From: a virus
Virus record (IMG/VR): IMGVR_UViG_3300045988_171958
Coordinates: 1 to 64,000 of that record
Length of the DNA stretch: 64,000 nt
Reading direction: 5' to 3' (one strand)
This document shows, one piece after another, positions 5,255 through 58,639 of this stretch. The notes below the pieces were generated by a model that saw nothing but the letters and a program-made list of their open reading frames with translations, searched no databases and was not told the origin of the DNA. The first letter of the stretch is position 1; each line of letters begins with the position of its first letter. Made by a program: the position numbers and the translations under genes.

Positions 5255-5275
5255 ATGAATTTCTGATTCAGATAT

Positions 5276-5945: not shown

Positions 5946-5948
5946 ATA

Positions 5949-6590: not shown

Positions 6591-6591
6591 C

Positions 6592-7587
6592 ATGGATAAG
6601 ATATCAATTATAACTACATTCTATAATGCACAGACGTTTATTGGTAATGCAATTGGGTCTGTTCTAGGGCAGAAAGTACCAGATGGTTGTGAAATTGAAT
6701 ATGTTTTAGTAGATGACAAATCACAAGACAATTCTAGAAAGCTTGTTGAGAATATCATAAACAACACATCAAAAGAGAATTTTGAATTTAAGTTAGTAGA
6801 ACCAGAAACTAATCTTGGATGTGGTGGAGCTCGTAAGTTTGGTATTGAAAATGCCACTGGTAATTATTTTATGTTCTTGGATGCAGATGATTACTATATT
6901 CATCTTGATTTTGTAGAAAATGCTTACAATACTATTACATCAGAAAATGCTGATGTCGTAGAATATGGTGTTATCTACAATCAACAGAATGGACAGCAAA
7001 CTAATTCTACAGCCCCACAGAAGATTGTGCTTACTGATCCTCATGATATGGAAATAGCTTTGTTTAAAGACAATCTCATCAAGTTCAATGTTTGGTCTAA
7101 GATATATACAAGAAAGATTGTAGAAAGCTATCCTTATTCTACAAGAAGAACATTTGAAGATGTAAGAACAATTCCAGTATGGATAAGCAATTGCAATAAA
7201 GTTGTGATTATGCCAATTCCACAAATCAATTACAGAGCTGCATCTAATTCTATTATCAGAACAAATTGGGTAGATACAAGACTTGGTACTATTTCAGCTA
7301 TAGCACAGTTGTTTCCGAGATTCAAAGATGATAGACAGCTTCTTAAAGCAATGTATACACGTTCTATGATTGATTTGGAAGCTATTATGAACAATAAGTC
7401 AAGTGAATGTGAAGGTTTTGATGAAATGTCGAAATTAAATACATATATGCTTAAGTTCATTTATCCTGATAAGTGGAAGGATCTTACATATAATGTAGAA
7501 ATGGATCCAGAATTAAATCCAGATTTGAATAAAGAGATGAAAGCAAAGTATATTAAAACTGATTTGAACAATTTGCCAGGTATGTAA
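6592..7587 (+). CDS. Family 2 glycosyltransferase
   Basis: ISIITTFYNAQ...VLVDDKSQDNS...GCGGARKFG...FLDADDY (GT-A fold with a DxD motif). Confidence 0.8.
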   Translation: MDKISIITTFYNAQTFIGNAIGSVLGQKVPDGCEIEYVLVDDKSQDNSRKLVENIINNTSKENFEFKLVEPETNLGCGGARKFGIENATGNYFMFLDADDYYIHLDFVENAYNTITSENADVVEYGVIYNQQNGQQTNSTAPQKIVLTDPHDMEIALFKDNLIKFNVWSKIYTRKIVESYPYSTRRTFEDVRTIPVWISNCNKVVIMPIPQINYRAASNSIIRTNWVDTRLGTISAIAQLFPRFKDDRQLLKAMYTRSMIDLEAIMNNKSSECEGFDEMSKLNTYMLKFIYPDKWKDLTYNVEMDPELNPDLNKEMKAKYIKTDLNNLPGM

Positions 7588-7610
7588 CTAATTTATGCAA
7601 AATAATGAAT

Positions 7611-33706: not shown

Positions 33707-34360
33707 ATGATAAATTTCAATTTCATAATTGATTGCTTAGCTTCATTAAATACTATGAGGAATGATGTTGGGTCTATGAAAAACATCAATATTCTTTCTG
33801 ATATGATTAAAGAAGCTATATTGGACAATCAAACAATATATATTACAGGAATAGGTAAGCCAGGATATATAGCTCAAAAGAATGCTGCCACATTGAAATC
33901 AATAATGGTTGATGGACAATTCATAGATGCGTGCTTAGCAGGACATGGAGATTTAGGACCTATTTCAACTGACAAACCATCTTTGTTGATTGCTATGTCA
34001 AAATCTGGATGTTCAAATGAACTTTATGTGTTGTTCAAATACATGAAACAATTGCGACCAAAATGTAAAATTGCAATGATTTGCATGTCAAATGAAATGC
34101 AATTGAATAAAGTAAGGTCATGTAAAGATATTGATTTTATTTGCCATATAAAGACAGATCCAGGAGAGTTGGATGGATTTGGAATTGTACCGGCTACATC
34201 AAATATAATATTTGAAGCAGTAATGTCCACAGCTATATCTGGGGCATTCAATTCAGAAGAGCTTGGTATGGTAAACATGTGTGAAAGATTGCAAAAGAGT
34301 CATCCATCAGGAACATTGCAATCAAAAGTTACTAATCTTTTGAATACTTTAAGAAATTAA
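33707..34360 (+). CDS. SIS-domain sugar-phosphate isomerase, KpsF/GutQ-type (D-arabinose-5-phosphate isomerase-like, no CBS domains)
   Basis: ITGIGKPGYIAQKNAATLKS...AGHGDLGPI...IAMSKSGCSNEL matches G.GKSG.I..K.AAT..S...HGDLG...IS.SGE..E. Confidence 0.7.
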   Translation: MINFNFIIDCLASLNTMRNDVGSMKNINILSDMIKEAILDNQTIYITGIGKPGYIAQKNAATLKSIMVDGQFIDACLAGHGDLGPISTDKPSLLIAMSKSGCSNELYVLFKYMKQLRPKCKIAMICMSNEMQLNKVRSCKDIDFICHIKTDPGELDGFGIVPATSNIIFEAVMSTAISGAFNSEELGMVNMCERLQKSHPSGTLQSKVTNLLNTLRN

Positions 34361-34376
34361 TCTATATTAATATTGT
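34339..34376 (+). promoter_or_regulatory. Promoter-family variant
   Basis: TTTGAATA at 34339-34346 and ATCTATATTAATATTGT at 34360-34376, overlapping the SIS stop codon. Confidence 0.4.
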
Positions 34377-34401
34377 CTATATTAGTATTGATTTAAAATT
34401 G

Positions 34402-35727
34402 ATGAAAATGAAAAAGAATTGTTTATTTGTTGTTCAGTCACATTATCCAGAAAGCCATTATATGGAGCTTAACTTAGAGTTAGTTTTTCCATTCTATTTG
34501 GTTACAGATGGAGAAAAAACTATAATTGAGAGAAAGATTGATGAGTTGCTTAATAAATATGATGGGGATATTTATGTTTATGAGGCATTTCATGAATATG
34601 CCGAGTTGCTAAATTCATTTCTTTGCCACAATAGAGAATCTTATGATAGAGTGCATGTAATTTCCGAAATTGATCGAATGGGTGATTTGACAAAAACTTT
34701 TTCTATTGAATGTTGGGATAAAGGTATCAGAGAAGAATTTGACCAAAAGAAATATCTTAGGGATTTGTCAACTAAAAATACATGCAGATATTTCAATCAG
34801 ATTAAAATTGAAGATGATAAAGTAATTAAGATTGCAAAGACAGAAGATGCTATCAAATTACAAAAAATTGAAAATGATTTCTACGACAAATATAGCAATA
34901 TACCATGTTTGTGCGGAAAACAAGGATATGATGAAAATAAACATGAATTGATTTTGAATAAAATCGACGGAGTAACAGCTCAAGAATGGTATTATAAAAA
35001 TGGTGATTTTAAGAAATTGATTTCTAATGTAATCAAAGCTTTACATACCATTAATGATGTTGATATAGATGTAGATGATGAAGATGAAGATATCAGAAGA
35101 GCATTCTACAATGAATTGATTGGAAAGGTATATACTAGGGTAAATCCATGTAAGAAATTGATTGATTATTTCATTGAAGAAACAGAAGTAAGGTGTATTG
35201 ATTACATGCCAATTACAACACATTTTAATGTATTGATGGATGCATTAAAGAAATGGTATGAAAATAATGAAATCAATTTCAATGCATGTCTTTGTCATGG
35301 TGACCCAAATACAGATAATACAATGATTGATAAAGATGGTAATGTAATCTTTATTGATCCTCGTGGATATTTTGGGAATCTTAAGACAATTGGATTAGGA
35401 ATGGCAGAATATGATATTGCAAAATTCTGCTATGGACTTAATGGATATTCAAGATTCAACAGTGCTCCTTATGTCACAATTGAAGAAATTGATTATTCTG
35501 ATGGTATGAATCTTAAATTAGAATATCCATCTGGTGATTTTTCTTCAATTACACAAATTGATTTGGATGATATGCCAATTGATACAAATATAAAGATTAT
35601 CGTTGGTATTATTTGGATGAAATTGACTTCATATATTATAAATGATCCAATGAAGAGTGTAATTGCTTATCTTTATGGAAATGCAATTTGTACAAAATAT
35701 TTAAAGGAATTAAAATATCTAAAGTAA
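34402..35727 (+). CDS. APH/choline-kinase-fold kinase (putative sugar kinase)
   Basis: CLCHGDPNTDNTMIDKDGNVIFIDPRG gives the HGD..N catalytic loop and the D of DxG. The track start at 34399 is TTG, so ATG 34402 is used. Confidence 0.6.
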   Translation: MKMKKNCLFVVQSHYPESHYMELNLELVFPFYLVTDGEKTIIERKIDELLNKYDGDIYVYEAFHEYAELLNSFLCHNRESYDRVHVISEIDRMGDLTKTFSIECWDKGIREEFDQKKYLRDLSTKNTCRYFNQIKIEDDKVIKIAKTEDAIKLQKIENDFYDKYSNIPCLCGKQGYDENKHELILNKIDGVTAQEWYYKNGDFKKLISNVIKALHTINDVDIDVDDEDEDIRRAFYNELIGKVYTRVNPCKKLIDYFIEETEVRCIDYMPITTHFNVLMDALKKWYENNEINFNACLCHGDPNTDNTMIDKDGNVIFIDPRGYFGNLKTIGLGMAEYDIAKFCYGLNGYSRFNSAPYVTIEEIDYSDGMNLKLEYPSGDFSSITQIDLDDMPIDTNIKIIVGIIWMKLTSYIINDPMKSVIAYLYGNAICTKYLKELKYLK

Positions 35728-44478: not shown

Positions 44479-46245
44479 TTATGAATCTATTGATACTACT
44501 AATGGGTCACCAATAGTAGATGGAGCAACAGTTATTTCATCTTCTGGTCTTGGCAATACACCTGAAGAAATGAGTTTTCTAACTAAATGATCTGTCTTTT
44601 CTCCTAAAGCATCTGTATCAATATTCTTTATTCTAAAGAAGTACTTGAAGTGTGAATAGTCAGATAGTTGTACTCCATAAAGATAAGAAGTATCAAACCA
44701 TTTTCCTGCACCCGCATATATACCACAATGATTCAATATAGTAGATTCATTCTTTACACCTATATCACCAGGTTTAAGATCATCAACAGATATTCTTTCC
44801 CAATCATTATCACTGAATAAAGTGAAGAAGTCAACACACATGTTAGGTGTCTTTACATTCAATGCCTTCTTCATTACATATTTGATATATCCAGAACAAT
44901 CCAATCCATATTCTGGTTTGTCTTTACCATGTATCTTATAGAAAAGACCTGGTTGCATAAGTAAGCAGTTGTACATTACTTCTTGTCTCTTACTAGATAT
45001 AAGTGACCAGTCATGTTCCCAAAGTTCAAGAATAGTATTTTTGTCGTATGATGTAAAGCATCTGCCTTTGTCTTGGCCAAATTCAAAATCATCAGTATGG
45101 TAGATAGCATTCTTCTTCATGTATGCTTCTATCTTATCTATCACAATGTCAAACATATTATGCTTGATTTGTTGTGATATTCCTTGAACACCCGGACTTG
45201 AATTATATTCTATTACAAAGTCACCATCAGTACAAGCCATCAAGTCAATACCAACCCATCTGCATCCAGAAAGCTTAGCAACCTTCAATGCAATTTCTTT
45301 TTGCTTGTCTGTCATCTGGTATTCTTCTGTCTTAGCTCCTAATGAGACATTGCTTCTGAAGTCGCCACTTATCTTATCACGTTTCATACAAGCAAGTATC
45401 TCATAATTAGCACCATCAACGGAAAATGCATGTACACGAATGTCACCAGTATTCTCTTTATATTCTTGTATGATGAATTCTGCTTCTTTATCCACAGCAA
45501 ACATAGCTTGCAGTATTCCTTCTATTTCATCATGATTGCAGATGAATACACCAATACCAAGACTACCATTCAGTATCTTTACTACGTATTGTCTGTTTTC
45601 TTTCAGTTCATTTATGTTCTCATTATCTTTATAGATAGAATCAAGCATCTTCCAGAAACTTTCTCTAGTATCGTGGCATTCTGTATTCAAGTCCTCCATC
45701 AATTCTCTTGTTATCAGTACATATCCTGGCTGTGGAATATTTTCTTTAGCCAATAAGTTAGATGCAAGATACTTGTCAGATGCCATGATGATTTCATCTA
45801 TAGTATTCAGCATGAAGAAACCTTCATATTCAAATGCCCTCATCAACCCAATATAGTTTTTCTTATTGTCATCATTAGCTTGACCTTGGAATATGATAGT
45901 ATCATGAATGTTAGAATGTTTCAATGAGAAATGCATGTCTGTTATATCATCATCTATAGATATGATATGATTAGAATAAGTAAATCGTACTGTTGCTTTG
46001 TTCAACCATACAAGATTCAGCTTTCTCTTATGACAGCAAATAGTCAAATAATCTTGATAAGACCAATCTTCTTCTTTTTCTTCTGCCGCTTCATCGTAAC
46101 TCTTTACTTTCTTTTCTCCAACATAGAAGCATATTACATTCTTTATTTCTAACTTGGTATCATTTTTCAGAAGCGTCATTGCTTCATTTATGTTTGCATG
46201 CCCTATGTTCTTATATTCTTTTTCCATTTTATTTACAAAGTTCAT
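44479..46245 (-). CDS. RimK-like ATP-grasp ligase fused to a C-terminal NlpC/P60 cysteine peptidase domain
   Basis: ATP-grasp motifs: KILNGSLGIGVF, GDIRVHAF, GDFRSNVSLGA, VIEYNSSPGVQGI. NlpC/P60 motifs: GLDCSGYIKYV ... PGDIG ... NHCGIYAG. Confidence 0.7.
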   Translation of the reverse strand: MNFVNKMEKEYKNIGHANINEAMTLLKNDTKLEIKNVICFYVGEKKVKSYDEAAEEKEEDWSYQDYLTICCHKRKLNLVWLNKATVRFTYSNHIISIDDDITDMHFSLKHSNIHDTIIFQGQANDDNKKNYIGLMRAFEYEGFFMLNTIDEIIMASDKYLASNLLAKENIPQPGYVLITRELMEDLNTECHDTRESFWKMLDSIYKDNENINELKENRQYVVKILNGSLGIGVFICNHDEIEGILQAMFAVDKEAEFIIQEYKENTGDIRVHAFSVDGANYEILACMKRDKISGDFRSNVSLGAKTEEYQMTDKQKEIALKVAKLSGCRWVGIDLMACTDGDFVIEYNSSPGVQGISQQIKHNMFDIVIDKIEAYMKKNAIYHTDDFEFGQDKGRCFTSYDKNTILELWEHDWSLISSKRQEVMYNCLLMQPGLFYKIHGKDKPEYGLDCSGYIKYVMKKALNVKTPNMCVDFFTLFSDNDWERISVDDLKPGDIGVKNESTILNHCGIYAGAGKWFDTSYLYGVQLSDYSHFKYFFRIKNIDTDALGEKTDHLVRKLISSGVLPRPEDEITVAPSTIGDPLVVSIDS

Positions 46246-47287
46246 TTATAGCTTCTACTAACTTTTCAAAGAACTTACAATTAGTTTCTTCTATGTTAGG
46301 GTCATTGATAGGAGAGCTCGGTCCAGGTGCACCATTCAATTCTACTACTATAGTGTTTCCATTCTGTAATGGTAGCATGTCAACACCACACCATTCAAGA
46401 CCAGATGCTTTAGCAGCTGCTAAAGCCAGCTTTTCTTGTTCAGAAGTCATCTTGTAGTCATCTTCCATGTCACAACCAAGACTGAGATTAGTTCTGAAGT
46501 CTTTACCTTTCTTTCTCATGATAGAAGACAATATCTTTTGCTTACCATTCAATGTAAGTACATGAGCTCTGATATCACCATCTTTTATATCTTGAAAGTC
46601 TTGTATGAGTATTGGACAGTTTTCCTTCAATTTGAACAAACATTGCAATATAGATACAATGTTTTTGCCACGACAGCAAAACACACCTTTGCCACCATGT
46701 CCATTCAGAATCTTACAAACATATTTTAATCCATCATCAAGCTTACCATAGAGTTGCTTTAGCTTTTCATCTAGCTTCTTATGATCTTCTTTATCTATAT
46801 CACCAGAAGTTGCAAGTACATATTTTGGTTGTGGAAGTTCTGCTTTTGTCAAGAAACATGCAGTTGCATATTTATCAGATGACATAGCTACTGCTTCTGG
46901 ATTGTTCAATATCAGTATATCTAATTCTTGTATAGCATCAAGTAAAGCTGATATCACTTCCTTAGTATATCCACTACGCATCAATACTACTGTGTTCTTA
47001 GAATCTGCTTTAGTAAGTACTACATCTGGCAAGTCTTTCTCTCCACTATATATGTGTACTTTATCATCTTTGAAAGAAAAGTTGAGCTTGGTAGGATCTG
47101 CATATTCTACTTTTATCTTATCTCTCTTAAGCATCTTTACAGAATTCAAGTAAAGTTCACCTATCAATATTATTCTTTCTACTTTCTTAAGCTTAGTATG
47201 ATTTTCTACTTTACTGTTACTGTTTTTTTCTACTATATATTCTATAGATTTCAGTTCAGTAATGTAGTTTGTTCCATTGTACTTCAT
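46229..47287 (-). CDS. RimK-like ATP-grasp ligase
   Basis: KILNGHGGKGVFC, GDIRAHVL, KDFRTNLSLG and VVELNGAPGPS. The track start at 47293 is TTG, so ATG 47285-47287 is preferred. The ORF overlaps the downstream gene by 17 nt. Confidence 0.7.
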   Translation of the reverse strand: MKYNGTNYITELKSIEYIVEKNSNSKVENHTKLKKVERIILIGELYLNSVKMLKRDKIKVEYADPTKLNFSFKDDKVHIYSGEKDLPDVVLTKADSKNTVVLMRSGYTKEVISALLDAIQELDILILNNPEAVAMSSDKYATACFLTKAELPQPKYVLATSGDIDKEDHKKLDEKLKQLYGKLDDGLKYVCKILNGHGGKGVFCCRGKNIVSILQCLFKLKENCPILIQDFQDIKDGDIRAHVLTLNGKQKILSSIMRKKGKDFRTNLSLGCDMEDDYKMTSEQEKLALAAAKASGLEWCGVDMLPLQNGNTIVVELNGAPGPSSPINDPNIEETNCKFFEKLVEAINELCK

Positions 47288-47324
47288 TTTCAAATTGAAT
47301 AAATCTTATATATGTAAAAATACT

Positions 47325-48576: not shown

Positions 48577-49722
48577 ATGAGTTGGAAACCTAATTTTGAT
48601 TACAGCAACAAGAACATGAACTTTTATAAAGTTGGTTGTAATTTCGATCCTAAATTGATTGATGTTGCTGTAGAGTTGAATAAGAAATATAAGGGTAAGT
48701 CACAGATTGTAGAATTTTTTGGATCTGATGCAAGTAATGAAGTAGTAACTGCAAGACCAGGTTGGAGATTGCCAGATATTGATAAAGAATTCTTTGCAAA
48801 TTATGTAAAGAAGTTGAAGGATAACAATATCGCATTCAACTATACAATGAATTCAATTCAGCCTTATGGTTCAAAAATGGAAATGCTGAATCATAAGAAA
48901 GATATTCAGGATCTTGTAAAATGGCTAGAAAATATTGGTGTAGCACGTATTACTGTGGCAAACCCAATGATGTTACTTTTTATTAGAGAAGTATCAAATA
49001 TTGAAATTGAGATGTCATGTATTTCTCATATTGATACTGTGACTCAGTTGAAGTATTATCATGAAACATTTGGAGTAAATAAGTTCTGTAATTCAATTCT
49101 TAAGAATCGTAATAAGCATTTCTTAATTAATGCACAGAAGTATTGTGATGAAAATGGTTGCATATTAGAATGTATGGCAAATGAATTTTGTGGAGTAGCT
49201 GGTGTTGATGGAAATGGTACTCATTATGCCACACATTGTGTATTTAGAGATTCTTGCTATCTCTGTCATGCAACAAACAAGACAAAAGAGGATAGTATGT
49301 CTTACAATAATTATCCAATGGGATATTGTATGTCAGCACGTTCATCAACTCCAGAAGCTTGGCTTCGTATGAGATTCATTAGACCAGAGGATCAAAAAAT
49401 TTATCGTGAAAATACTGGTGTAAATTATTTTAAACTTTCTGGTAGAACTGGTACCACAGATTATCTTGAATACATTATGAATGCATATATGTCAGAAAAC
49501 TATGATGGTAATCTTCTTGGTTTGTGGAAACCTCTTTCATCAATTTATGATGGAAAAACAGAATTGAAATCTAAAACAGATATTGATATTCCAAATAAGA
49601 AGCTTGATGGATTCATCAATAAGTGGATGGATGGAAATGGATGGGAATGTGCTGACCAGATGTGTGGTACAACCTGTGATTATTGTGCAAAATTTGCTAA
49701 AGAACATAACTTATATGACTAA
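48577..49722 (+). CDS. Peptidase-U32-family-like protein (putative Fe-S, prephenate-dependent hydroxylase of the RlhA/TrhP/UbiU type)
   Basis: TIM-barrel-like order resembles U32 proteins: ..IVEFFGSD...R......F...V..L...NIAFNYTMNS ... VARITVANPMMLLFIRE ... IEMSCISHIDTV. A Cys cluster follows: LECMANEFCGVAG...HCVFRDSCYLCH. The PROSITE U32 pattern matches only approximately. Confidence 0.4.
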   Translation: MSWKPNFDYSNKNMNFYKVGCNFDPKLIDVAVELNKKYKGKSQIVEFFGSDASNEVVTARPGWRLPDIDKEFFANYVKKLKDNNIAFNYTMNSIQPYGSKMEMLNHKKDIQDLVKWLENIGVARITVANPMMLLFIREVSNIEIEMSCISHIDTVTQLKYYHETFGVNKFCNSILKNRNKHFLINAQKYCDENGCILECMANEFCGVAGVDGNGTHYATHCVFRDSCYLCHATNKTKEDSMSYNNYPMGYCMSARSSTPEAWLRMRFIRPEDQKIYRENTGVNYFKLSGRTGTTDYLEYIMNAYMSENYDGNLLGLWKPLSSIYDGKTELKSKTDIDIPNKKLDGFINKWMDGNGWECADQMCGTTCDYCAKFAKEHNLYD

Positions 49723-50038
49723 TATAACTAACTCTGATTTGAAACTTCTCAAATCATGCAGAGCAGAAATTACAAGAGGTGACCGGTCATTGGTCAACCT
49801 CTTGATTTCTAGAATGAATAATGCTATATTGATAGGAAGAATCAAGAAGAAAGCAGATGAACCTATTGTACAACCAGACAGATGGAATCATGTAATGAAA
49901 AATGTGCATAAGCAATTAGAAGGTTCAAGACTTAGTACTGAATATAAAGAAGAATTTGACTATCTTATTGATAGTATATTCAATATTATTCATGAAGTAT
50001 CATGTAAATTGCAAGAAAAGGATCATGACAATAGATAA
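49715..50038 (+). CDS. Chorismate mutase type II (CM_2)-like protein
   Basis: 107 aa from ATG 49715, overlapping the upstream stop in ATGACTAA. LKSCRAEITRGDRSLVNLLISRMNNAILIGRIKKK...QPDRWNHV...HEVSCKLQ aligns with EcCM R11, R28, K39, D48/R51 and S84/Q88. The E52 position appears to be W. Confidence 0.5.
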   Translation: MTNITNSDLKLLKSCRAEITRGDRSLVNLLISRMNNAILIGRIKKKADEPIVQPDRWNHVMKNVHKQLEGSRLSTEYKEEFDYLIDSIFNIIHEVSCKLQEKDHDNR

Positions 50039-51137
50039 GAAATTTGTAGACGACCACATGCAAGATAAGAATATCTTGTACATACCTATTATCTCTTCTA
50101 TAAATAGAGAGACAAACAAGTATAATTTGGATAGTGATGGAAATGTAGTACGTTTTATTACATTTTTTGAACATCATAAGAATTTCAATACTTTGACAAT
50201 ATTGCTTCCAAAGAATAATGAATCACATGATATCATTGACAGGTGGGTAAAAGACAATGATAATATTGAAATCATTTGGTCAGATAATTTTGGTAAGCAT
50301 GCTGGTGAACAAAGAAGTGATTCTGATGTTGTGAGTAAGATGGAGATGGAATTGTTTGAACTTATAAATAATCCAGATAATGATAATGATTTCAATATTG
50401 TAATGTTTGAAAGTCAATTTTTAGGAAATTTATTGGTTGACCCATATTGGTTTAAAGGATTTGAAAAGGTTTTCTGGTGTCCAGTTTGTAAGATTGATAA
50501 TGAGCATACAAGAAATTTCTTAGAGGGATATGATAATTTGAATAAGAAATTGTTTCAACTTTCGGATTGGTCAATTGTAGAAAGTCCAACACAACTCAAG
50601 AAATTCTCTTTACCAGAATGTTCAATATACCCTTATTATATGATGATGGATCGCAATCTGAAATATTTTGATTATATGACAGATTTTGGATTGAAAGATA
50701 CTATTAAAACAGTTAAGAATCTTGATACAGGTACTTATTCTATTTATTATATTCCTTATAGATTGACTGATGAAGGATATAAAGTAGATGATGTTATTTC
50801 ATATATTAATTATGACTATGCTGATGTGGTTGTTGTGTATTATACAGATCCAAACAATAGTGGAGCAATGGAAGATTTGAAGAAAAAATTCAATTCAAAT
50901 GTTGTTTTCATCAAATTATCAACAGATAGAAATACACATTTTACCATGTTGTCATCAGAAGATGTTGTTGTACCATACTTTGAAGATTTAGATTTCATCA
51001 ATCATGCAACTTTATGGGAAATGATGTCATCAAAATCAAGATGTCAATTTGGAATAACTAAGGAACAATATGATATGAATTCATATAATATGAAATCTTG
51101 TGATAGATGTTTCTATATTGATTTAAAGAATTTATAA
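50025..51137 (+). CDS. Divergent T4 beta-glucosyltransferase (GT63)-like protein, paralog A
   Basis: Phage YSIYYIPYRLTDEG compares with T4 BGT LDVIYGGSFRSGQRE, and FINHATLWEMMSSKSRCQF with FITLRVWETMASDAVMLI. ATG 50025 overlaps the CM stop. Confidence 0.4.
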   Translation: MTIDKKFVDDHMQDKNILYIPIISSINRETNKYNLDSDGNVVRFITFFEHHKNFNTLTILLPKNNESHDIIDRWVKDNDNIEIIWSDNFGKHAGEQRSDSDVVSKMEMELFELINNPDNDNDFNIVMFESQFLGNLLVDPYWFKGFEKVFWCPVCKIDNEHTRNFLEGYDNLNKKLFQLSDWSIVESPTQLKKFSLPECSIYPYYMMMDRNLKYFDYMTDFGLKDTIKTVKNLDTGTYSIYYIPYRLTDEGYKVDDVISYINYDYADVVVVYYTDPNNSGAMEDLKKKFNSNVVFIKLSTDRNTHFTMLSSEDVVVPYFEDLDFINHATLWEMMSSKSRCQFGITKEQYDMNSYNMKSCDRCFYIDLKNL

Positions 51138-51147
51138 ATGAAATAAA

Positions 51148-52371
51148 ATGAATCATGATAGTATTTTATTAAAAATCTTTTTTAATAAAGAGAATAAGAT
51201 AATTGGAGGAAAAGTAGCAAGGATAAAAAGAATATTCCCAAACATATTGTCTTATTTAAATAAAAGATATCCTGATTCATTTTCTTTAAAAGAAACTCTA
51301 ATTAGGATGAAATATCATATTGATGTTCATCCAAAATGCCCGGTTTGTGGAAATTTTACAAAGTTTTATGGGTTTAAAAATTTGATGTTTGCAAATCATT
51401 GTTCTAACAAATGTACTCAATTAGATAGTGAAACTAAAATAAAATTTAAACAAACTTGCTTTAAAAAATATGGGGTTGATGCTCCAATGAAATCTTCTAA
51501 AATAAAAGAAAAATCTAAACAAGTTTGTTTAGAAAAATATGGTGTGGAAAATATATCACAATTTTTTGAAACTAAAGAAAAATATAAACAAACTTGTTTA
51601 GAAAAATATAATGTTGATAATCCATTTAAATTAGAAAAAACGAAAATAAATTCACATTCAAAAGAAGCTAAAGAAAAGCAAAGAAAAACTTGTTTAGAAA
51701 AGTATGGAGTAGAAAATTCATTCCAATCAAAAGAAGTTAGACAAAAATATAAAGAAAATTATAAAAGAAAATATGGAGTAGAAAATCCATTTCAAAACGA
51801 AATAATAAAAGAAAAGATAAAACAAACTTGTTTAGAAAAATATGGTGTTGATAGAGCAATTAAAAGTGATTTGGTAAAAGAAAAATGTAAACAAACTTGC
51901 TTGGAAAAATATGGAAGTAGTTCACCAATGAAAAACCCATATATTGTAAATAAATCTATAAATAAGAGAATTCAAAACAATACTTGGTCTACTTCAAAAC
52001 CAGAAGAAGAATTGTATCTTTATATAAAAGAAAGATTTCCATCTGTAAAAAGACAGTATAAAGATAAAGAAAGATACCCATATTTTTGTGATTTCTACAT
52101 TCCTGAATTAGATTTGTTTTTAGAATTGAATGGGACTTGGACACATGGAAACCATCCTTATGATATGAATTCTAAAGAAGACAATTCTATATTAAATATA
52201 TGGAAAGAAAAATCTAAAGAACATCCTATGTATTTAAGTGCAATAAAAACATGGGTTGTAAGTGATGTAAATAAGAGAAATAAAGCAAAAGAAAATCATT
52301 TAAATTTTAAAGAAGTTTGGAATTTAGATGAAGGAAAAGAATTTATAAATAAATTAACTAGAAGAGAATAA
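51148..52371 (+). CDS. Homing-endonuclease-like protein: Zn-ribbon, 7 C.EKYGV.N repeats, and a C-terminal PD-(D/E)XK/Vsr-like motif
   Basis: CPVCGN...HCSNKC at the N-terminus. The ~30-aa repeat K..C..KYGV.NP.Q occurs 7 times. The C-terminus carries YFCDFYIPELDLFLELNGTWTHG. Confidence 0.55.
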   Translation: MNHDSILLKIFFNKENKIIGGKVARIKRIFPNILSYLNKRYPDSFSLKETLIRMKYHIDVHPKCPVCGNFTKFYGFKNLMFANHCSNKCTQLDSETKIKFKQTCFKKYGVDAPMKSSKIKEKSKQVCLEKYGVENISQFFETKEKYKQTCLEKYNVDNPFKLEKTKINSHSKEAKEKQRKTCLEKYGVENSFQSKEVRQKYKENYKRKYGVENPFQNEIIKEKIKQTCLEKYGVDRAIKSDLVKEKCKQTCLEKYGSSSPMKNPYIVNKSINKRIQNNTWSTSKPEEELYLYIKERFPSVKRQYKDKERYPYFCDFYIPELDLFLELNGTWTHGNHPYDMNSKEDNSILNIWKEKSKEHPMYLSAIKTWVVSDVNKRNKAKENHLNFKEVWNLDEGKEFINKLTRRE

Positions 52372-52373
52372 AG

Positions 52374-53846
52374 ATGAATGTGATATTAGTAAGTGGTGGA
52401 TTACAGACTAGATTTAATGAACTTTCTTGTTTTCCTAAGATATTGTTGCCATCAAAAGATGGAACACCAATTTTGATTAAGCAATTAGATTATTTTGATG
52501 AAGCAAATACAGTAAGTATCGTTGTAAATCAAAAATTTGCAAAGATCATGAAAGCTTATATTGAAATCAATCATCTTAATGTTGATGTGATTGTATCTGA
52601 TAATACTAATGGTTCAGGCAATACTTTAGCTTCTGTATATGATTGGCTTCCAAAAAAGAATGTTTTGTTTTTCTGGTCAGATATTTTGTTTGATAATGAT
52701 GAATTCAAATTGGATAGAAAAATTGAAGATAAAGACAATTGTGTGATTTTTACTGTAAATGATGCAAAATATCGATATAAGATAGAAGATGGTAAGATTG
52801 TAAACAGATCATTTGCTTATGATGGAAATATCCCAGGTATCTTTTGGATCAAAGATATTTCAGAGGTTATTCCAACTAAACCATGTGATGAAAATAAAGA
52901 TTTGATTGATATCATTCAAGAAAAAGTGAATGATGGTATGATTACTTTTGTTGAGTCAAATATCAATACAAAGATTACTGAATATAAGTCATTATCAGAA
53001 TATAAGAAGATTATGTCAACTTCTTATCAGAAAGATTTAGTTTTACCTACTGATATGGAAGTTTCGTATACTGATAAAGAATCCATGCAATATGTAGCAA
53101 AAACAAATGAGCATTTGAATTATCAATATGACTGGATTTCTTTTTTATCTTATAATCCTGGAATTAGTGATTATGTTGTAGATATGCCAGTAAGTAAGAC
53201 AGAAGACGGATACGTTTGTGATATGCACAATCTTGAAGGATATACACATGCATCAAAGGTAAATCTTACTAATCTTTTAAACAATTTTGTAAGATATAAA
53301 GTAGATGTACCATTGTCAACATCTGTAAAATTTTTGTTAGAAGAATATAATGGTAAACCACTGAAGGGGATTTGTGATACATGCAGACTTTTTGAAAATA
53401 ACAGAACATTTGCAGAAGTTCAAACACTTATAGATAATGCATGTAATCTTCTTATAGATGGTTTAGCGAATGATGAATGGGTATTAACTCATGGAAACAT
53501 CAATTCTCATAATGTTCTTGTAAATATGACTGGTGATATCAAATTGTATAATCCAGTATCAAGAAGAAATGGATCTTTTTTCTGCCATCCAATTGTCGAC
53601 CAATCAGAAGCTTATATGGTAGAGATTGGATTAGATGAAGCTTTGAGAAAGGAAATGACATATAAAGTAGATGAACTTCCAAAGATAGAAGATTGTGATG
53701 TGTTTATTGAAACTGCTATCTATCTTCATTTACTTGGTATGCTTCCAATGTTTGCAAAAGATATTATGAAATTGAATATTGTATTGGAGTATGCTATTTC
53801 AGGATTGTCTAACATAATTAATGAATGTATTGATGGAAACAAGTAA
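52374..53846 (+). CDS. Bifunctional sugar-1-phosphate nucleotidyltransferase / APH-fold kinase
   Basis: The N-terminus ILVSGGLQTRF...FPKILLP is an NTP_transferase G-loop. The C-terminus LTHGNINSHNVLVNMTGDIKLYNP is a kinase catalytic loop. Confidence 0.6.
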   Translation: MNVILVSGGLQTRFNELSCFPKILLPSKDGTPILIKQLDYFDEANTVSIVVNQKFAKIMKAYIEINHLNVDVIVSDNTNGSGNTLASVYDWLPKKNVLFFWSDILFDNDEFKLDRKIEDKDNCVIFTVNDAKYRYKIEDGKIVNRSFAYDGNIPGIFWIKDISEVIPTKPCDENKDLIDIIQEKVNDGMITFVESNINTKITEYKSLSEYKKIMSTSYQKDLVLPTDMEVSYTDKESMQYVAKTNEHLNYQYDWISFLSYNPGISDYVVDMPVSKTEDGYVCDMHNLEGYTHASKVNLTNLLNNFVRYKVDVPLSTSVKFLLEEYNGKPLKGICDTCRLFENNRTFAEVQTLIDNACNLLIDGLANDEWVLTHGNINSHNVLVNMTGDIKLYNPVSRRNGSFFCHPIVDQSEAYMVEIGLDEALRKEMTYKVDELPKIEDCDVFIETAIYLHLLGMLPMFAKDIMKLNIVLEYAISGLSNIINECIDGNK

Positions 53847-53931
53847 GTTTAAGACATCAAGAAGAGTATTGAGAGAAGGTTTGACTTGGGCTGATTATTT
53901 TAAGTCCAAGCATACCTTAGAATATATCAAT

Positions 53932-54414
53932 ATGAAGAAAATCATAATTTCTGACTGTGATGGTATCTTGACTGATGGAAATATGACTTATGATGACAAC
54001 AGAAAACGATTTAAAACCTATGGTTGCCATGATAAGGAATTATTCAATATTGCTAAAGACCTTGGATGGGAATTCTTATTTGTAACAGATGATAGGACTG
54101 GATGTGATATTACAGACAGAAGAATAAGTAATTCTTTCATGTTACATGTTACAGAAGCTGATCCAAATGAAAGAGAAAAATTAGTTAAGAAATATAGGGA
54201 TAATGGATACATTGTTGCTTTTATTGGAGATAGTCCAAGTGATGTATCAGCTGCTGTAGCGGCAAATATATGTGCTACTACAGATAATTGCTTTGAATAT
54301 ATAAAACCATTTTTTCATTATGTTTCTAAATATCAAGGTGGACACGGAGGATTTGCTGATATATTATATCAACTAATGCTAATGGATAAAGATGATCTTG
54401 AAATCTATAAGTAA
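53932..54414 (+). CDS. KdsC/YrbI-type HAD phosphatase
   Basis: IISDCDGILTDGNMTYD...FKTYGCHDKE and IGDSPSDVSAA (HAD motifs I and IV of the YrbI subfamily). The start was set at ATG 53932; 53821 or 53833 are possible. Confidence 0.65.
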   Translation: MKKIIISDCDGILTDGNMTYDDNRKRFKTYGCHDKELFNIAKDLGWEFLFVTDDRTGCDITDRRISNSFMLHVTEADPNEREKLVKKYRDNGYIVAFIGDSPSDVSAAVAANICATTDNCFEYIKPFFHYVSKYQGGHGGFADILYQLMLMDKDDLEIYK

Positions 54415-54425
54415 ATCATAAAATC

Positions 54426-54470
54426 AATACTGTATTTTTAATTTAGAAATAAATTTAAATACAGTATTTT
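54426..54470 (+). terminator. 12-bp hairpin ending 2 nt before the next start codon (terminator, attenuator or processing site)
   Basis: AATACTGTATTT (54426-54437) pairs with AAATACAGTATT (54457-54468), followed by TT and then ATG 54471. Confidence 0.45.
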
Positions 54471-55700
54471 ATGATTAAACATATAGAAGAACCTAGTGGA
54501 AAGGGAAGAATAGCATGCATATCTTTACCAGTAAGACATATACTAGTGAATAGAGACAATATCACCATGTATAATGTATATCATTATTGGAAGTATTTGA
54601 CAGAATTTTTGAAATATGATAAAGTATATATATTGACAACATCGTTGTCTAATTCTGGTGAAAAATATAATAACATATTGAAAGATTGCCCATTGATATA
54701 TGGAATTGAAAAGAAAGACTTGTTATTAGATTATCATATAAATGACATGTGGATTGTTCCAGCTCAGACAAATATATTTGGTGGAATGGCTATTATGACC
54801 TTTCCATTTTGTATGAATAGAATATATGAATGGTGGAAATCAAAATCTGCATCAGATAAGATGATATTCATTAATGATGATCCAGAAGTATGTAAGCTTT
54901 GGTTTTTCCGATATCATACTAATCGTTATGCTATTAAGAAAGATGCAAGGATAGTGTGGAAACAAGGAATAAATCAAGATAATTGGAATACAGAAATTGA
55001 TTTGTTAGAATCAAGATATGATGATATATGCAATATGGAAAATGATTTTGATTTGGCATTTTGTGGATTAGATTATGATAAATATGTTAAAGAGTATGGG
55101 ATAAAGGTCTTGCCAAAATCTTGGTTTAATTTCAATGTTTACTATTACATTACATTAAATGATGATTTAGATTTGAGAATGAGAAATTATGACTTTAATG
55201 ATAAGAAATATTCTGCTTGCTATTATGGATATATTAAAGATTTAGATAGAATAGCTAGAACAGAAGAATTTTACAGTAAAGTTGATAAGCCATTTTTAGT
55301 AATTAAAGGAGGTAGTAAGAATTTCTTTAAACATGTAGATTTTGACCATGATATAGATCTTGTAAAAAATATGCCTTATTCAGATTTGCTAAAATTTGTT
55401 CCATCAAATGCTAAGTCTTCATTAATAACACATAACAAATGTATATTGGGTAATCAAGTATCACCAAGATGGTTTGATTTGATGCTTATGGATATTGTAT
55501 GTTTTGTTGACGAAGCTTTTGATCCAAACCATGAATTGTGTGATGATTGGCTTTATGAACATACATATTGTAAGAATGGACAAGATTATGCAGACAAGCT
55601 TAAGAAAATAGAAAACAACGAACCATTATATAGAGAGATTGTTCAAAGACAACGTAAGTTTGTATTTGAAAAGTATGAAAAATATCTCCCGAAATTCTAA
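54471..55700 (+). CDS. T4 beta-glucosyltransferase (GT63)-like DNA glycosyltransferase, paralog B
   Basis: Phage versus T4 BGT (recalled from memory): PAQTNIFGG / VNSSINFFGG; KMIFINDDPEV / KIYYLFTDIRLPF; YSACYYGYIKD / LDVIYGGSFRSG; VSPRWFDLMLMDIVCFVDEAFDPNH / ITLRVWETMASDAVMLIDEEFDTKH. Confidence 0.6.
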   Translation: MIKHIEEPSGKGRIACISLPVRHILVNRDNITMYNVYHYWKYLTEFLKYDKVYILTTSLSNSGEKYNNILKDCPLIYGIEKKDLLLDYHINDMWIVPAQTNIFGGMAIMTFPFCMNRIYEWWKSKSASDKMIFINDDPEVCKLWFFRYHTNRYAIKKDARIVWKQGINQDNWNTEIDLLESRYDDICNMENDFDLAFCGLDYDKYVKEYGIKVLPKSWFNFNVYYYITLNDDLDLRMRNYDFNDKKYSACYYGYIKDLDRIARTEEFYSKVDKPFLVIKGGSKNFFKHVDFDHDIDLVKNMPYSDLLKFVPSNAKSSLITHNKCILGNQVSPRWFDLMLMDIVCFVDEAFDPNHELCDDWLYEHTYCKNGQDYADKLKKIENNEPLYREIVQRQRKFVFEKYEKYLPKF

Positions 55701-55731
55701 TTTATATATAAAGTATATTAAATTGATTAAT

Positions 55732-55821
55732 ATGAAATGGGTAGAAAATAAAACACAGATTCCTATTTATGGATATCAAATATCTACAGATGGTAAGAAG
55801 TATATTTATGTTTGTAAATAA
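55732..55821 (+). pseudogene. Possible remnant of a NUMOD4-type homing endonuclease N-terminus (29 codons)
   Basis: MKWVENKTQIPIYGYQISTDGKKYIYV resembles the E.W..I.g...Y.vS..G.v motif. It is too short to be a functional HNH enzyme. Confidence 0.25.
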
Positions 55822-55823
55822 AA

Positions 55824-56426
55824 ATGGAAAAAATTCGGATCATAGTTCTTGAAGGTTGTGATAGAACCGGTAAAGGAACATTATTGGAAAATTTAAAGAA
55901 TAGATTTGATGATTTTTTAGTATATAATCCAGTATCAGCAGAGAAGGAAAAGGTAGATTATAAAAATCCACAGAAATTTGAAGAGTGGATTAAGAAAACA
56001 ATTCGTAAAGTACTTGATGACTTATATACTATGTCAAAGTTGAATGGTACTGATAGACCTATTGTAATGGATCGTCTTTTACTTACAGATAACGTATTTG
56101 CAGATTTATTTGATCGTAAACATGTAGTGGAAAAGTATTTTGGTAGAGAAATTGAAGCAAACTTCAAATTGACTAATTACATTATGCTTTGGAGAAATCC
56201 AGAAGAGTATAAAGATCGAGTAAATTTGTTGAAAGAAAATCAAGATTTTACAGAAAAAGAAATTGATGATATTCTAAGTTTATTCAATGAATATAAGAAA
56301 TCAAATGATATAGTAAAGTTGATTGACAATACAGATACACCAGAAGATATATTAGATGATTTTGTATCAACATTTATTGAAGAAACCCCTAAATGGAAAT
56401 TAGAACATGATAGTACAACACACTAA
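55824..56426 (+). CDS. Thymidylate-kinase/dNMP-kinase-like P-loop kinase
   Basis: IIVLEGCDRTGKGT (EG.D..GK.T P-loop) and MDRLLLTDNVFA (DR..S..aY-like). Confidence 0.55.
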   Translation: MEKIRIIVLEGCDRTGKGTLLENLKNRFDDFLVYNPVSAEKEKVDYKNPQKFEEWIKKTIRKVLDDLYTMSKLNGTDRPIVMDRLLLTDNVFADLFDRKHVVEKYFGREIEANFKLTNYIMLWRNPEEYKDRVNLLKENQDFTEKEIDDILSLFNEYKKSNDIVKLIDNTDTPEDILDDFVSTFIEETPKWKLEHDSTTH

Positions 56427-57009
56427 AACATTGAATTATACAAAACCTACAGATTTGTTCAATTATATTATAGATACATATAAGGATGAACAGTATATGA
56501 AAGATTATGTTCTTAGTGCATCTAGAACAGAAATTTTAGAAGATTATACAAGTAGGAAGAAGGTAATGGTAACTGATGTTTTACCGTTAGGTGAAAAGGA
56601 CTATGATAAAGATGCATTAGATTTTGCTACACAACTTGGATGGGAATTTACATTATATTCAGATAATAGTATATGCCCATTATATGATGAACAGGATTGG
56701 TTAGCAAGTTGGAATTGCTACCATTATGATGATGTAGAAAAAATATGTACTTATATTCGTTCAAAGAGAAATAATGGATATACAACAGCATTCATTGGAT
56801 ATAAGATGGAAGATGTATTTGCAATGTTTGAAGCAAATTATAGTGGTACTTGTGTTGATGCATTACAATATACAAAGCAATATTGTGATTTTGTATCTGA
56901 TAGGACATTCAATTCATTTGCCTTTGCTGAATTGTTAGTACATATAGTAAAACAAGATGTGAAGAAATTCTTAAGAGAAAATTTCCAAAAATATTTTATT
57001 AAAAAGTGA
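56407..57009 (+). CDS. Degenerate KdsC-like HAD-fold paralog (nucleophile motif lost)
   Basis: It shares LGWEF, IGYKMEDVFA and the C-terminal F.FAELL with the 53932 gene, but SDCDGILTDG is replaced by VTDVLPLGE. Confidence 0.45.
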   Translation: MIVQHTKTLNYTKPTDLFNYIIDTYKDEQYMKDYVLSASRTEILEDYTSRKKVMVTDVLPLGEKDYDKDALDFATQLGWEFTLYSDNSICPLYDEQDWLASWNCYHYDDVEKICTYIRSKRNNGYTTAFIGYKMEDVFAMFEANYSGTCVDALQYTKQYCDFVSDRTFNSFAFAELLVHIVKQDVKKFLRENFQKYFIKK

Positions 57010-57450: not shown

Positions 57451-57505
57451 GTTCTGCCATTTCTAATTGATGTTTAATAATTTAAAAAGTAAAATTAAAA
57501 GAAAA

Positions 57506-58639
57506 ATGAAGAAGTTTATTTTAACAATGTTGCTGGCTTTGACAGCAGTATTTAGTGTTAATGCTCAGACACAGTCTAATTATGCTGGTAGTTCTAAGTT
57601 TATGGACAATGTTTCTGTCGGTGTAGTTGGTGGTGTTGAGACTAATCTCAATCAGTGGAATTGGCCACATGGTGCTGTAACTGGTATTGTTATCAATAAG
57701 GAAATTACTCCAGTATTTGGTGTAACACTTGAAGGTACAACTGGTATCAATAACATTACTAATTGGAATAATGGATATCGAACTAGTTGCAGCAATGCAT
57801 TTGATACTTGGTCAGTAATGATTGCAGGACGTGTAAATCTTACTAATGCTATTTGGAAGTATAATGGTAAGCCACGTAAGTTCGAAGTAGAGACTAATAC
57901 AGGTATTGGATACGGTAATATGCACCATGCTTATCATATTGATGGTCTATGGAATGATCCAGAGCATCTTGCAAACCATTACATGTGCAAGCTTGGTCTT
58001 AATCTGAATTATAACGTAACAGATGCATGGACTATTACTTTGCGACCAGCAGTTATTTATGCTATTAGTGAATATAATGGAGCAAATTTTGATACACGTA
58101 CTTCTGTAGCACAGCTTACTGCAGGTATTGTATATCACTTCAAGACAAGCAATGGTACTCGATCATTCAATAAGGCTAAGCTTTATGACCAGGCAGAGGT
58201 TGATATGTTGAATGGAAAGATCAATACACTTCAGAAGAATCTTAATGATGCAAATGCAACTATTGAGGTAATGCGTGATTCTCTTACAAAGACAAATACT
58301 TTGATTGAGACAAATGAGGTAACTAAGATGGTATATCCAAAGATTCAGTTTAAGAAGGGTACAGCTAAGATTGAGTCAACATCTATGGCTAATATTTATG
58401 ATATTGCTGATGCATTAAAAGATGTTGATGGTACTATCAAGGTAACTGGATATGCTTCTACTGAAGGTTCTACTAAATATAATAAAGAACTTTCACTCAA
58501 GCGAGCAGTAGCAGTTAAGAATGCACTTATCAAGGCAGGTGTTGATGCATCAAAGATTAAGACTATCGGTGCTGGTCCTGTAAATAAGTTCTCTCCTGAT
58601 AACCTTGAGTTGAATAGAATTGTTACAACAGAGAAGTAA
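57506..58639 (+). CDS. OmpA-family outer-membrane protein (signal peptide, beta-barrel-like N-domain, coiled coil, OmpA_C domain)
   Basis: MKKFILTMLLALTAVFSVNAQ, then C-terminal FKKGTAKI...VTGYASTEGSTKYNKELSLKRAVAVKNALIKAGV. The gene is visibly GC-richer than its flanks. ATG 57506 is preferred. Confidence 0.75.
   Translation: MKKFILTMLLALTAVFSVNAQTQSNYAGSSKFMDNVSVGVVGGVETNLNQWNWPHGAVTGIVINKEITPVFGVTLEGTTGINNITNWNNGYRTSCSNAFDTWSVMIAGRVNLTNAIWKYNGKPRKFEVETNTGIGYGNMHHAYHIDGLWNDPEHLANHYMCKLGLNLNYNVTDAWTITLRPAVIYAISEYNGANFDTRTSVAQLTAGIVYHFKTSNGTRSFNKAKLYDQAEVDMLNGKINTLQKNLNDANATIEVMRDSLTKTNTLIETNEVTKMVYPKIQFKKGTAKIESTSMANIYDIADALKDVDGTIKVTGYASTEGSTKYNKELSLKRAVAVKNALIKAGVDASKIKTIGAGPVNKFSPDNLELNRIVTTEK

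Follow-up and report, generated by a model that had tools for sequence, protein, structure and literature searches.

A phage DNA-modification cluster with a U32-family protein and a chorismate mutase: a candidate oxygen-independent route to glycosylated 5-hydroxycytosine

Introduction

How does a bacteriophage place a hydroxyl group on the cytosines of its DNA when the enzyme known to do so is missing from its modification cluster? The question is raised by a block of nine genes at positions 48577-57009 of a 64,000-nucleotide stretch of viral DNA (positions 1 to 64,000 of IMG/VR record IMGVR_UViG_3300045988_171958), the whole of which is referred to here as the window. A preliminary description, made from the sequence alone, had read the block as a DNA-hypermodification island with its own sugar-nucleotide supply line and had suggested that a peptidase-U32-like protein and a chorismate mutase encoded at its start might provide the hydroxyl group of a pyrimidine.

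Glycosylated 5-hydroxycytosine was recognised only in 2025-26, and the one hydroxylase known to be involved requires oxygen, so that the means by which DNA of this kind is protected in the anoxic gut calls for an explanation. RlhA, TrhP and UbiU-UbiV are characterised U32 Fe-S enzymes, which are required for O2-independent hydroxylations. RlhA forms 5-hydroxycytidine and requires prephenate synthesis (PMC5727448), the oxygen donor of UbiU-V is prephenate (PMC10990095), and the nucleic-acid U32 enzymes characterised so far all act on RNA (PMC5727448, PMC6599085). In phages RB69 and DLP3, a flavin-carrying thymidylate synthase (TS) homolog with the diagnostic substitutions L143E (or D), D169N and N177D uses O2 to produce 5-hydroxy-deoxycytidine monophosphate (5-hydroxy-dCMP). 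An arabinose-5-phosphate isomerase, the kinase/uridylyltransferase AfhE and the phosphatase AfhF lead to uridine diphosphate (UDP)-arabinofuranose, and GT-B enzymes put arabinose on the DNA (Lee et al., NAR 2026, PMC13326640). Phages with arabinosyl-5-hydroxycytosine are RB69, DLP3, HY126 (Afh genes), Bas46/47, Serratia LC53/92A1 and Thanatos (PMC13326640).

Here, we propose, with a probability of roughly 0.6, that the block, together with an isomerase and a kinase gene at 33.7-35.7 kb of the window, encodes a pathway of the glycosylated-5-hydroxycytosine type without an O2-dependent step, in which the U32 protein and the chorismate mutase would form a prephenate-dependent, O2-independent cytosine C5-hydroxylase. 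The strongest evidence for a hydroxylase is the recurrent coupling of U32 genes to prephenate supply in phage lineages that share little else. We narrowly favour the wider proposal that the phage U32 clade, including gp50 of RB69, would be the first hydroxylase of the prephenate-dependent, O2-independent kind with a deoxynucleotide or DNA as its substrate, that chorismate mutases, DAHP-synthase::mutase fusions or shikimate pathway genes would feed it, and that it would be the only such hydroxylase in phages of anoxic habitats. Below, we document the family assignments and the gene linkage, from which we infer each catalytic step.

Results

Distribution of U32, TS and chorismate mutase genes among related clusters

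U32-centred loci with 10-kb flanks were collected from assemblies and from IMG/VR and annotated with one common probe set. For the window, Mosigvirus and Serratia 92A1 proteins served as probes. Two sets were compared, 17 T4-like loci and 25 non-T4-like loci (U32 54-94% identical). In T4-like phages, the homolog of the window U32 gene sits in the arabinosyl-5-hydroxycytosine cluster, and all 17 T4-like loci have a TS gene with the hydroxylase signature (E143/N169/D177) at most 1.5 kb away from it. Such a gene was found within 10 kb of U32 in none of the 25 non-T4-like loci, and the same is true for a hydroxymethylase-type TS; the TS genes present in three of these loci code for canonical ThyA (L143/D169/N177). 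The non-T4-like loci keep the rest of the cluster, that is, the transferase, kinase, isomerase, AfhE and phosphatase genes. The window itself has no TS homolog, as had been noted before: the best tblastn match has an E-value of 0.13, and none was seen in Pfam scans (ORFs between 23.7 and 61.3 kb; precomputed Pfam calls for 1-14 kb and 52.7-64 kb).

The U32 gene is linked to the gene for a glycosyltransferase of the RB69 gp46:47 type in 23 of the 25 non-T4-like loci and throughout the T4-like set, and the two genes often overlap or abut. In the related loci, a chorismate mutase gene lies beside U32 in 17 of the 25 non-T4-like loci, either stand-alone or as a DAHP-synthase::chorismate mutase fusion, and in 14 of the 17 T4-like loci. 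The preliminary description was not aware of a phage for which the combination had been described. It is not new: at least 50 cultured T4-like genomes have a small mutase gene wedged between those for the U32 protein and the TS homolog, where it stands unexplained. Searching phages by tblastn with the window mutase gave no match, and the T4-like mutases were found only with a T4-like query.

Three loci (L017-L019), with a U32 gene that is 70% identical, carry an apparently complete phage-borne shikimate pathway within 3-9 kb, for instance at positions 9068-19311 of L017. The genes code for a DAHP-synthase::chorismate mutase, DHQ synthase, shikimate kinase, a dehydroquinase::EPSP synthase, chorismate synthase and shikimate dehydrogenase. 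The possibility that the DAHP_synth_1 domain of these relatives represents KdsA was rejected, as the domain is fused to chorismate mutase and encoded beside a full shikimate pathway.

A 97-kb viral contig (L055, 9965-14905) encodes a distant U32 homolog with 35% identity and, 2.8 kb away, a TS homolog with a D143/N169/D177 signature. Thus, there may be a third lineage that has both candidates for the hydroxylase.

Gene content of the block

The block contains nine open reading frames (ORFs), all on the + strand and at the coordinates given in the preliminary description. Two further genes of the window, both outside the block, are included in the following list of predicted products.

ORF1, 48577..49722, + strand: U32-family Fe-S protein, RB69 gp50 homolog
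ORF2, 49715..50038, + strand: AroQ-type chorismate mutase (CM_2)
ORF3, 50025..51137, + strand: GT-B glycosyltransferase, RB69 gp46:47 / DLP3 gp79 family
ORF4, 51148..52371, + strand: homing-endonuclease-like gene
ORF5, 52374..53846, + strand: AfhE-like bifunctional sugar-1-phosphate nucleotidyltransferase / sugar kinase
ORF6, 53821..54414, + strand: KdsC-type HAD sugar-phosphate phosphatase
ORF7, 54471..55700, + strand: T4 beta-glucosyltransferase-like (GT63-like) DNA glycosyltransferase
ORF8, 55824..56426, + strand: thymidylate-kinase-like P-loop kinase, RB69 gp45 type
ORF9, 56407..57009, + strand: degenerate HAD paralog of ORF6
Outside the block, 33707..34360, + strand: SIS-domain arabinose-5-phosphate isomerase-like protein, RB69 gp55 type
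Outside the block, 34399..35727, + strand: stand-alone APH-fold kinase, homologous to the AfhE C-terminal (arabinose-5-phosphate kinase) domain

The genes are as tightly packed as had been described, with four stop/start overlaps of 8 nt (ORF1/2), 14 nt (ORF2/3), 26 nt (ORF5/6) and 20 nt (ORF8/9); the start of ORF6 is listed as 53821 and was placed at 53833 by an independent gene caller. The ORFs are genuine conserved genes and not chance ORFs, since the same genes were called independently on the public contig CACVDK010000001.1 (GCA_902729945.1, 293,853 bp) and are conserved on many related contigs: close and distant homologs of its genes are found on many contigs of 150-300 kb. Across three fetched stretches, the window is 100% identical to CACVDK010000001.1, an accession for which a literature search gave no match. 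The block is part of a large uncultured phage with a genome of ~294 kb, and a megablast search with the block against GenBank phages gave no match. The labels proposed earlier for ORF1, ORF2 and ORF4 to ORF9 agree with the matches reported in the following paragraphs, and that of ORF3 was revised.

ORF1 and ORF2

The U32 domain of ORF1 can be detected with the curated Pfam profile Peptidase_U32 (26.2 bits, cutoff 22.4). The protein also matches PHROG 5757 (E = 5e-115) and is 46-49% identical to the product of the 'peptidase' gene of 222 T4-like phages (RB69 gp50 type). At the level of profiles, the phage U32 family aligns with the E. coli proteins UbiU/UbiV/TrhP/RlhA over 211 columns (hhalign 92%, E = 6e-7). 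Single-sequence comparisons of the family with each E. coli enzyme by hhalign/hmmsearch gave weak matches, and an attempt to name the closest E. coli U32 enzyme was dropped, as the best match, to RlhA, is too weak (22%, E = 1e-3). The phage U32 clade has invariant cysteines arranged as C205-X15-C221-X5-C227-X23-C251 and a clade-specific C-terminal CX4CX3CX2C motif. In ORF1, C221, C227 and C251 align with C169, C176 and C232 of UbiU, which are ligands of its cluster (PMC6747719), and the fourth UbiU ligand, C193, has no matching position in the phage U32 family. A CX5CX15CX5C pattern is specific to the ORF1 of the window, its first cysteine being variable in the family. Based on the profile-level similarity and on published structure comparisons of a 46%-identical homolog, ORF1 is assigned as a divergent U32-family protein. 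Hydroxylation is the favoured activity, because the characterised U32 relatives are O2-independent Fe-S hydroxylases and because of the link to prephenate.

ORF2 is, judged by its sequence, an AroQ-type chorismate mutase with predicted activity. It matches Pfam CM_2 with 53.5 bits (cutoff 27), its NCBIfam matches are chorismate mutase models, and its best PDB matches are the chorismate mutases 3rmi, 1ybz and 6al9. Six of seven catalytic residues of the E. coli chorismate mutase (EcCM) are kept, namely R11, R28, K39, R51, S84 and Q88, and the position of EcCM D48 is occupied by Q. The start of ORF2 overlaps the stop codon of the U32 gene by 8 nt.

The two glycosyltransferases

Two GT63-like transferases, ORF3 and ORF7, had been counted in the preliminary description; ORF7 falls within this group and ORF3 outside. 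Over 282 columns and nearly end to end, a 48-sequence profile of ORF3 aligns with the Mosigvirus ortholog of RB69 gp46:47 (hhalign 97.2%, E = 3.3e-11), and the same profile shows no relation to T4 beta-glucosyltransferase (BGT; hhalign probability 0.1%). The AlphaFold2 model of ORF3, with a predicted local distance difference test score (pLDDT) of 93, has a GT-B fold. Its nearest Foldseek matches in the PDB are LmbT, UGT89C1, GlgM, sucrose-phosphate synthase (SPS 6kih) and BshA, those in the BFVD include proteins of Acinetobacter phage KARL-1 (1e-9) and RB69ORF047c, and T4 BGT is not among the top 50 matches (PDB, BFVD). We thus place ORF3 in the RB69 gp46:47-type, base-proximal arabinosyltransferase-1 family and not in GT63.

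For ORF7, the best PDB sequence match is T4 BGT (E = 1.4e-3), and PHROG 7922 is matched with an E-value of 1.4e-7. An exhaustive search yielded 53 relatives. A 19-sequence profile aligns with BGT over 316 columns (hhalign 97.2%, E = 3.9e-11) at an identity of about 18%, and intermediate homologs match BGT at 100% (E = 1e-46), so that the bridging set matches both sides at 100%. D137 and R333 of ORF7 fall on D100 and R269 of BGT, which we take to be the catalytic and a UDP-binding residue, respectively. An AlphaFold2 model built from six close homologs was too poor for use (pLDDT 42). Judged by the profile alignments, ORF7 is a full-length BGT/GT63-like homolog, and its gene is confined to the window-type lineage.

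The presence of a BGT-like protein is one of two observations that speak for a different explanation, in which U32 and chorismate mutase would hydroxylate RNA (host or phage tRNA U34 or rRNA C2501), the linkage to DNA glycosylation would be incidental and the acceptor would be a hydroxymethyl-pyrimidine made elsewhere as in T4: BGT acts on hydroxymethylcytosine, and RNA is the substrate of every nucleic-acid U32 enzyme characterised. We consider this quite unlikely because of the tight and ancient linkage of U32 to a 5-hydroxycytosine-type transferase. U32 is embedded in a DNA-modification cluster in more than 40 loci of very distant phage lineages, and the gp46:47-type transferase is tied to 5-hydroxycytosine and not to hydroxymethylcytosine (PMC13326640). 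Furthermore, the BGT-like gene is limited to one sub-lineage, and hydroxymethylase-type TS genes are missing from the non-T4-like loci.

Sugar supply line, kinase and mobile insertion

The sugar-nucleotide supply line predicted for the block is present and is longer than had been described, as it also includes the isomerase and the second kinase at 33707-35727, 13 kb away from the block. ORF5 combines a nucleotidyltransferase-type N-terminus with a kinase-like C-terminus, in line with the fusion proposed earlier. Its N-terminus matches residues 4-155 of the Mosigvirus AfhE-type protein (E = 7e-11), the full-length protein matches an AfhE-like protein of the related locus L013 (E = 8e-25), and sugar-1-phosphate nucleotidyltransferase models of NCBIfam as well as PHROG 4098 (E = 4e-26) are also hit. 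The isomerase was found by tblastn with the Serratia 92A1 and Bas46 isomerases (E = 1e-12 and 2e-10, respectively) and matches NCBIfam KdsD (3.6e-16), GutQ and KpsF and the Pfam domain SIS. The second kinase was found with residues 183-507 of Bas46 AfhE (tblastn, E = 1e-29) and matches Pfam APH and Fructosamin_kin. ORF6 is similar to 2p9j (9e-8) and KdsC 1j8d (4e-7) in the PDB and to the KDN-9-phosphate phosphatase (9e-14) and KdsC (2e-9) models of NCBIfam, and has the DxD and GDxxxD motifs. No similarity was seen between ORF6 and the RB69 gp51-type (AfhF) HAD, and we propose that ORF6 is the counterpart of AfhF from a different HAD lineage. ORF9 is a paralog of ORF6 (26-31% identity, E = 1e-11 to 1e-12) without the catalytic DxD and GDxxxD motifs and without a match in Pfam and NCBIfam scans. 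A 'Kdo-like sugar', which the KdsD/KdsC-like matches might indicate, was rejected, as KdsA/KdsB are absent and the nucleotidyltransferase/kinase is AfhE-like.

ORF8 matches PHROG 761 (E = 1e-9), gives weak Pfam matches to dNK and Thymidylate_kin and aligns with the T-even gp45-type protein (hhalign 91%, E = 1e-6). Nearly all lineages keep a kinase of this type in the cluster, in some cases fused to a glycosyltransferase or isomerase. Fusions between P-loop kinase and SIS isomerase and between gp46:47-type transferase and P-loop kinase were seen in relatives (L013/L014 at ~6300-7600; L031-L033 and L054 at ~2600-7050), which supports a functional link among the fused parts. ORF4 matches Pfam DUF7487 (2e-40) and a PHROG of homing endonucleases (PHROG 3339; 8e-30). 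It is missing from the close, otherwise collinear relatives L004-L009, in which the next gene starts 1214 nt earlier, and for this reason we regard it as a mobile insertion inside the modification cluster and not as a pathway gene.

GT-B enzymes and KdsD/KdsC-like genes commonly belong to pathways for envelope glycans, and prephenate also feeds the synthesis of carboxy-S-adenosylmethionine (Cx-SAM) for phage carboxymethylcytosine (PMC12783734). One might therefore speculate that the island decorates not DNA but, for instance, virion proteins or glycans of the host envelope, and that the kinase, mutase and U32 genes serve general metabolism or supply prephenate for a CmoA-type enzyme. This seems most improbable, as the island is homologous, gene for gene, and syntenic to a cluster for which DNA modification has been characterised by experiment; one of the transferases is BGT-like, and no CmoA-like methyltransferase fold was found among the scanned ORFs.

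Oxygen-related distribution and the host

Phage records with the TS hydroxylase include 57 from Acinetobacter and 20 from Rhizobium, and neither genus is among the ten commonest genera of U32 carriers, for which the lowest listed count is 3 records. Acinetobacter hosts are strict aerobes. The cluster of Acinetobacter phage KARL-1 has the order isomerase(SIS)-AfhE-HAD-TS-transferase-kinase, without any trace of U32 or the mutase. In facultative anaerobes, the phages frequently have both U32 and TS, and the metagenomic lineage carries U32 only. The distribution of the two genes fits an oxygen logic. In the same phage, genes for the anaerobic ribonucleotide reductase, NrdD and NrdG, are found ~6 kb past the end of the window. 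There, ~5.9-9 kb past the last position of the window (L023, 17216-20330), NrdD is encoded as two ORFs of 505 and 348 amino acids, and the next gene is that of an NrdG-like radical-SAM (S-adenosylmethionine) activase. The split of NrdD may reflect an intervening element.

A Bacteroidota host, which had been suggested before, was not confirmed: the promoter motif of Bacteroidota shows no enrichment (7 occurrences versus 4.9 expected), and tRNA genes, looked for as a clue to the host, were not found. The phage encodes an OmpA-family protein with an N-terminal signal peptide (57467-58639), and copies with 80% identity are present on contigs binned as 'uncultured Romboutsia' metagenome-assembled genomes. 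Romboutsia was dropped as a candidate host, as these contigs are probably mis-binned phage.

Other genes of the window

Two neighbouring RimK-like ATP-grasp genes on the - strand (44479-47293), the first with an NlpC/P60 domain at the C-terminus, lie just upstream of the block. An ORF at 27787-28140 matches Pfam Tad6 (type I Thoeris inhibitor, E = 9e-29), an anti-defence gene, and adjoins a DEAD/ResIII-type helicase gene (25899-27779). A family-2 glycosyltransferase (Pfam Glycos_transf_2, 6592-7587) is encoded in a region of what seem to be structural or large virion genes and adjoins a Peptidase_G2-like gene. At positions 1-157, offset self-matches with 97% identity reveal a tandem repeat with a unit of ~39 bp.

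Discussion

In the proposed pathway, ORF2 would convert host chorismate to prephenate, as suggested by its family and catalytic residues, and would locally supply or hand over this oxygen donor to ORF1. Based on its family, cysteines and gene context, ORF1 may then hydroxylate cytosine at C5, a base chemistry that would equal that of RlhA on C2501 of 23S rRNA. The substrate is most likely dCMP, possibly DNA; hydroxylation at the dCMP level is probable in view of the dedicated P-loop kinase that the clusters retain. This kinase, ORF8, would phosphorylate the modified deoxynucleoside monophosphate and thereby allow its polymerisation. By homology to the characterised HY126/RB69 enzymes, the SIS isomerase would turn ribulose-5-phosphate into arabinose-5-phosphate, from which the AfhE-like kinase/nucleotidyltransferase enzymes and the KdsC-type phosphatase would produce arabinose-1,5-bisphosphate, arabinose-1-phosphate and a nucleoside diphosphate (NDP)-arabinose, if arabinose is indeed the sugar. 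After replication, ORF3 would attach the first sugar to the 5-hydroxyl group of cytosine, and ORF7 might add a second, further or alternative sugar. In the end, cytosines coated with sugar would protect the genome against restriction and CRISPR nucleases, and the pathway would run in anoxic habitats, where a flavin/O2 hydroxylase cannot.

Several points weigh against this proposal. The TS homolog of RB69/DLP3 alone suffices for 5-hydroxy-deoxycytidine in E. coli (PMC13326640), so that the U32 protein is not needed aerobically in the T4-like phages that carry both, and Escherichia phage records with TS outnumber those with U32 by ~40. Eight non-T4-like loci have no chorismate mutase gene within 10 kb. 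The U32 match of ORF1 is weak in sequence: the Pfam match spans 62 residues, PDB sequence searches with ORF1 and its family profile gave chance matches only, and the canonical CX6CX15CX3/4C spacing is not exactly reproduced. ORF2 has no equivalent of Glu52, the position of EcCM E52 being occupied by W. Neither the OmpA relatives nor the promoter motif led to a host and its oxygen relations, and the hydroxylase role of the phage U32 proteins is one that we infer from their sequences. Lastly, ~84 kb of the 294-kb genome were inspected, and a TS-type synthase or hydroxymethylase could lie elsewhere.

The first and last of these points are also what speaks for the view that the known TS-type flavin/O2 hydroxylase is encoded in the ~210 kb outside our view, and that U32 and chorismate mutase act as a back-up, as a helper or in another role in the same pathway, for example in sugar or heterocycle modification. 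The genes of jumbo phages are often scattered, as are the isomerase and second kinase genes here, and RB69 gp50, whose function was not tested, is listed in a table as 'sugar or heterocycle reductase' (PMC13326640), a label that suggests another role. We regard this explanation as rather unlikely because of what appears to be a gene displacement at the level of the cluster: signature TS genes, always close to U32 in the T4-like loci, are missing from all 25 otherwise complete non-T4-like clusters, and the three TS genes found there are canonical ThyA. An O2-dependent enzyme also fits poorly to a phage with NrdD/NrdG and to relatives with a whole shikimate pathway beside U32, and a sugar-modifying U32 protein would leave the prephenate link unexplained. 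Each comparative test that was run agrees with a prephenate-dependent U32 hydroxylase, and the U32/chorismate mutase pair is, as had been suggested, the best candidate for the source of the pyrimidine hydroxyl group.

The overall system is not an unknown one. In its gene content, the island is homologous to the cluster for arabinosyl-5-hydroxycytosine of RB69/DLP3/HY126, which supports the earlier description of a DNA-hypermodification island with a sugar-nucleotide line. The two share the U32 protein (gp50), transferase (gp46:47), kinase (gp45), AfhE (gp52:53) and isomerase (gp55), and presumably also the logic of a hydroxylated cytosine, an NDP-pentose line and post-replicative transfer. We consider the island a variant of this system, since the TS hydroxylase, one of the defining parts, was found neither in the cluster nor in the window, and the phosphatase is of another lineage. 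It differs from the characterised clusters in the absence of a TS-type 5-hydroxy-dCMP synthase from cluster and window, in a chorismate mutase that is translationally coupled to U32, in a phosphatase of the KdsC type instead of the gp51/AfhF type, in a kinase domain that is duplicated as a gene of its own and in the extra BGT-like transferase. In addition, it belongs to a ~294-kb uncultured phage that is not T4-like.

With RlhA, TrhP and UbiU-UbiV, the phage proteins share the U32 domain and a genetic association with the synthesis of prephenate, and three of their invariant cysteines align with ligands of UbiU. C5-hydroxylation of cytosine, which we propose for ORF1, is the reaction attributed to RlhA (23S rRNA ho5C2501). 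TrhP (tRNA ho5U34) and UbiU-UbiV (anaerobic ubiquinone synthesis) are the O2-independent twins in the pairs TrhO/TrhP and UbiIHF/UbiUV, and a parallel arrangement is proposed for phage U32. In contrast to these enzymes, the phage clade is very divergent, with similarity at the profile level only and a CX4CX3CX2C motif of its own, is encoded by a single gene without the heterodimer pair of UbiU-UbiV, and has a presumed substrate, deoxynucleotide or DNA, that would be unprecedented for the family. The discussion in PMC13326640 names the RlhA/TrhP routes of RNA hydroxylation and draws no connection to gp50. In the searchable literature, outside of which key subscription papers lie, we found U32, chorismate mutase or prephenate not linked to phage 5-hydroxycytosine.

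T4 BGT resembles ORF7 as a full-length profile homolog with matched Asp100/Arg269 positions, and ORF7 is likewise encoded near nucleotide-modification genes. Unlike in T4, no dCMP hydroxymethylase was found in the island. The identity to BGT is low, and the acceptor of ORF7 is probably 5-hydroxycytosine or its first sugar. The CmoA/CmoX route to carboxymethylcytosine (PMC12783734) offers a further parallel, as it also borrows RNA-modification chemistry, uses prephenate as a co-substrate and targets C5 of DNA cytosine. It depends on a SAM carboxylase and a methyltransferase fold, which have no homologs here, whereas the predicted user of prephenate in the island is the U32 protein.

If our proposal is correct, the chemistry of prephenate as an 'organic oxygen donor' would extend from RNA and quinones to DNA precursors, and 5-hydroxycytosine would have an anaerobic counterpart route in parallel to TrhO/TrhP and UbiIHF/UbiUV. 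It would also provide a function for a gene that is present in hundreds of well-studied T4-like phages and account for the aromatic-amino-acid pathway genes of some phages. Furthermore, a U32 gene together with a gp46:47-type transferase gene, in the absence of an N169/D177 TS, would be a sequence marker for hypermodified genomes in anaerobic metagenomes. Genomes marked in this way would be expected to withstand cleavage by restriction enzymes and Cas nucleases, and nanopore sequencing may miscall them.

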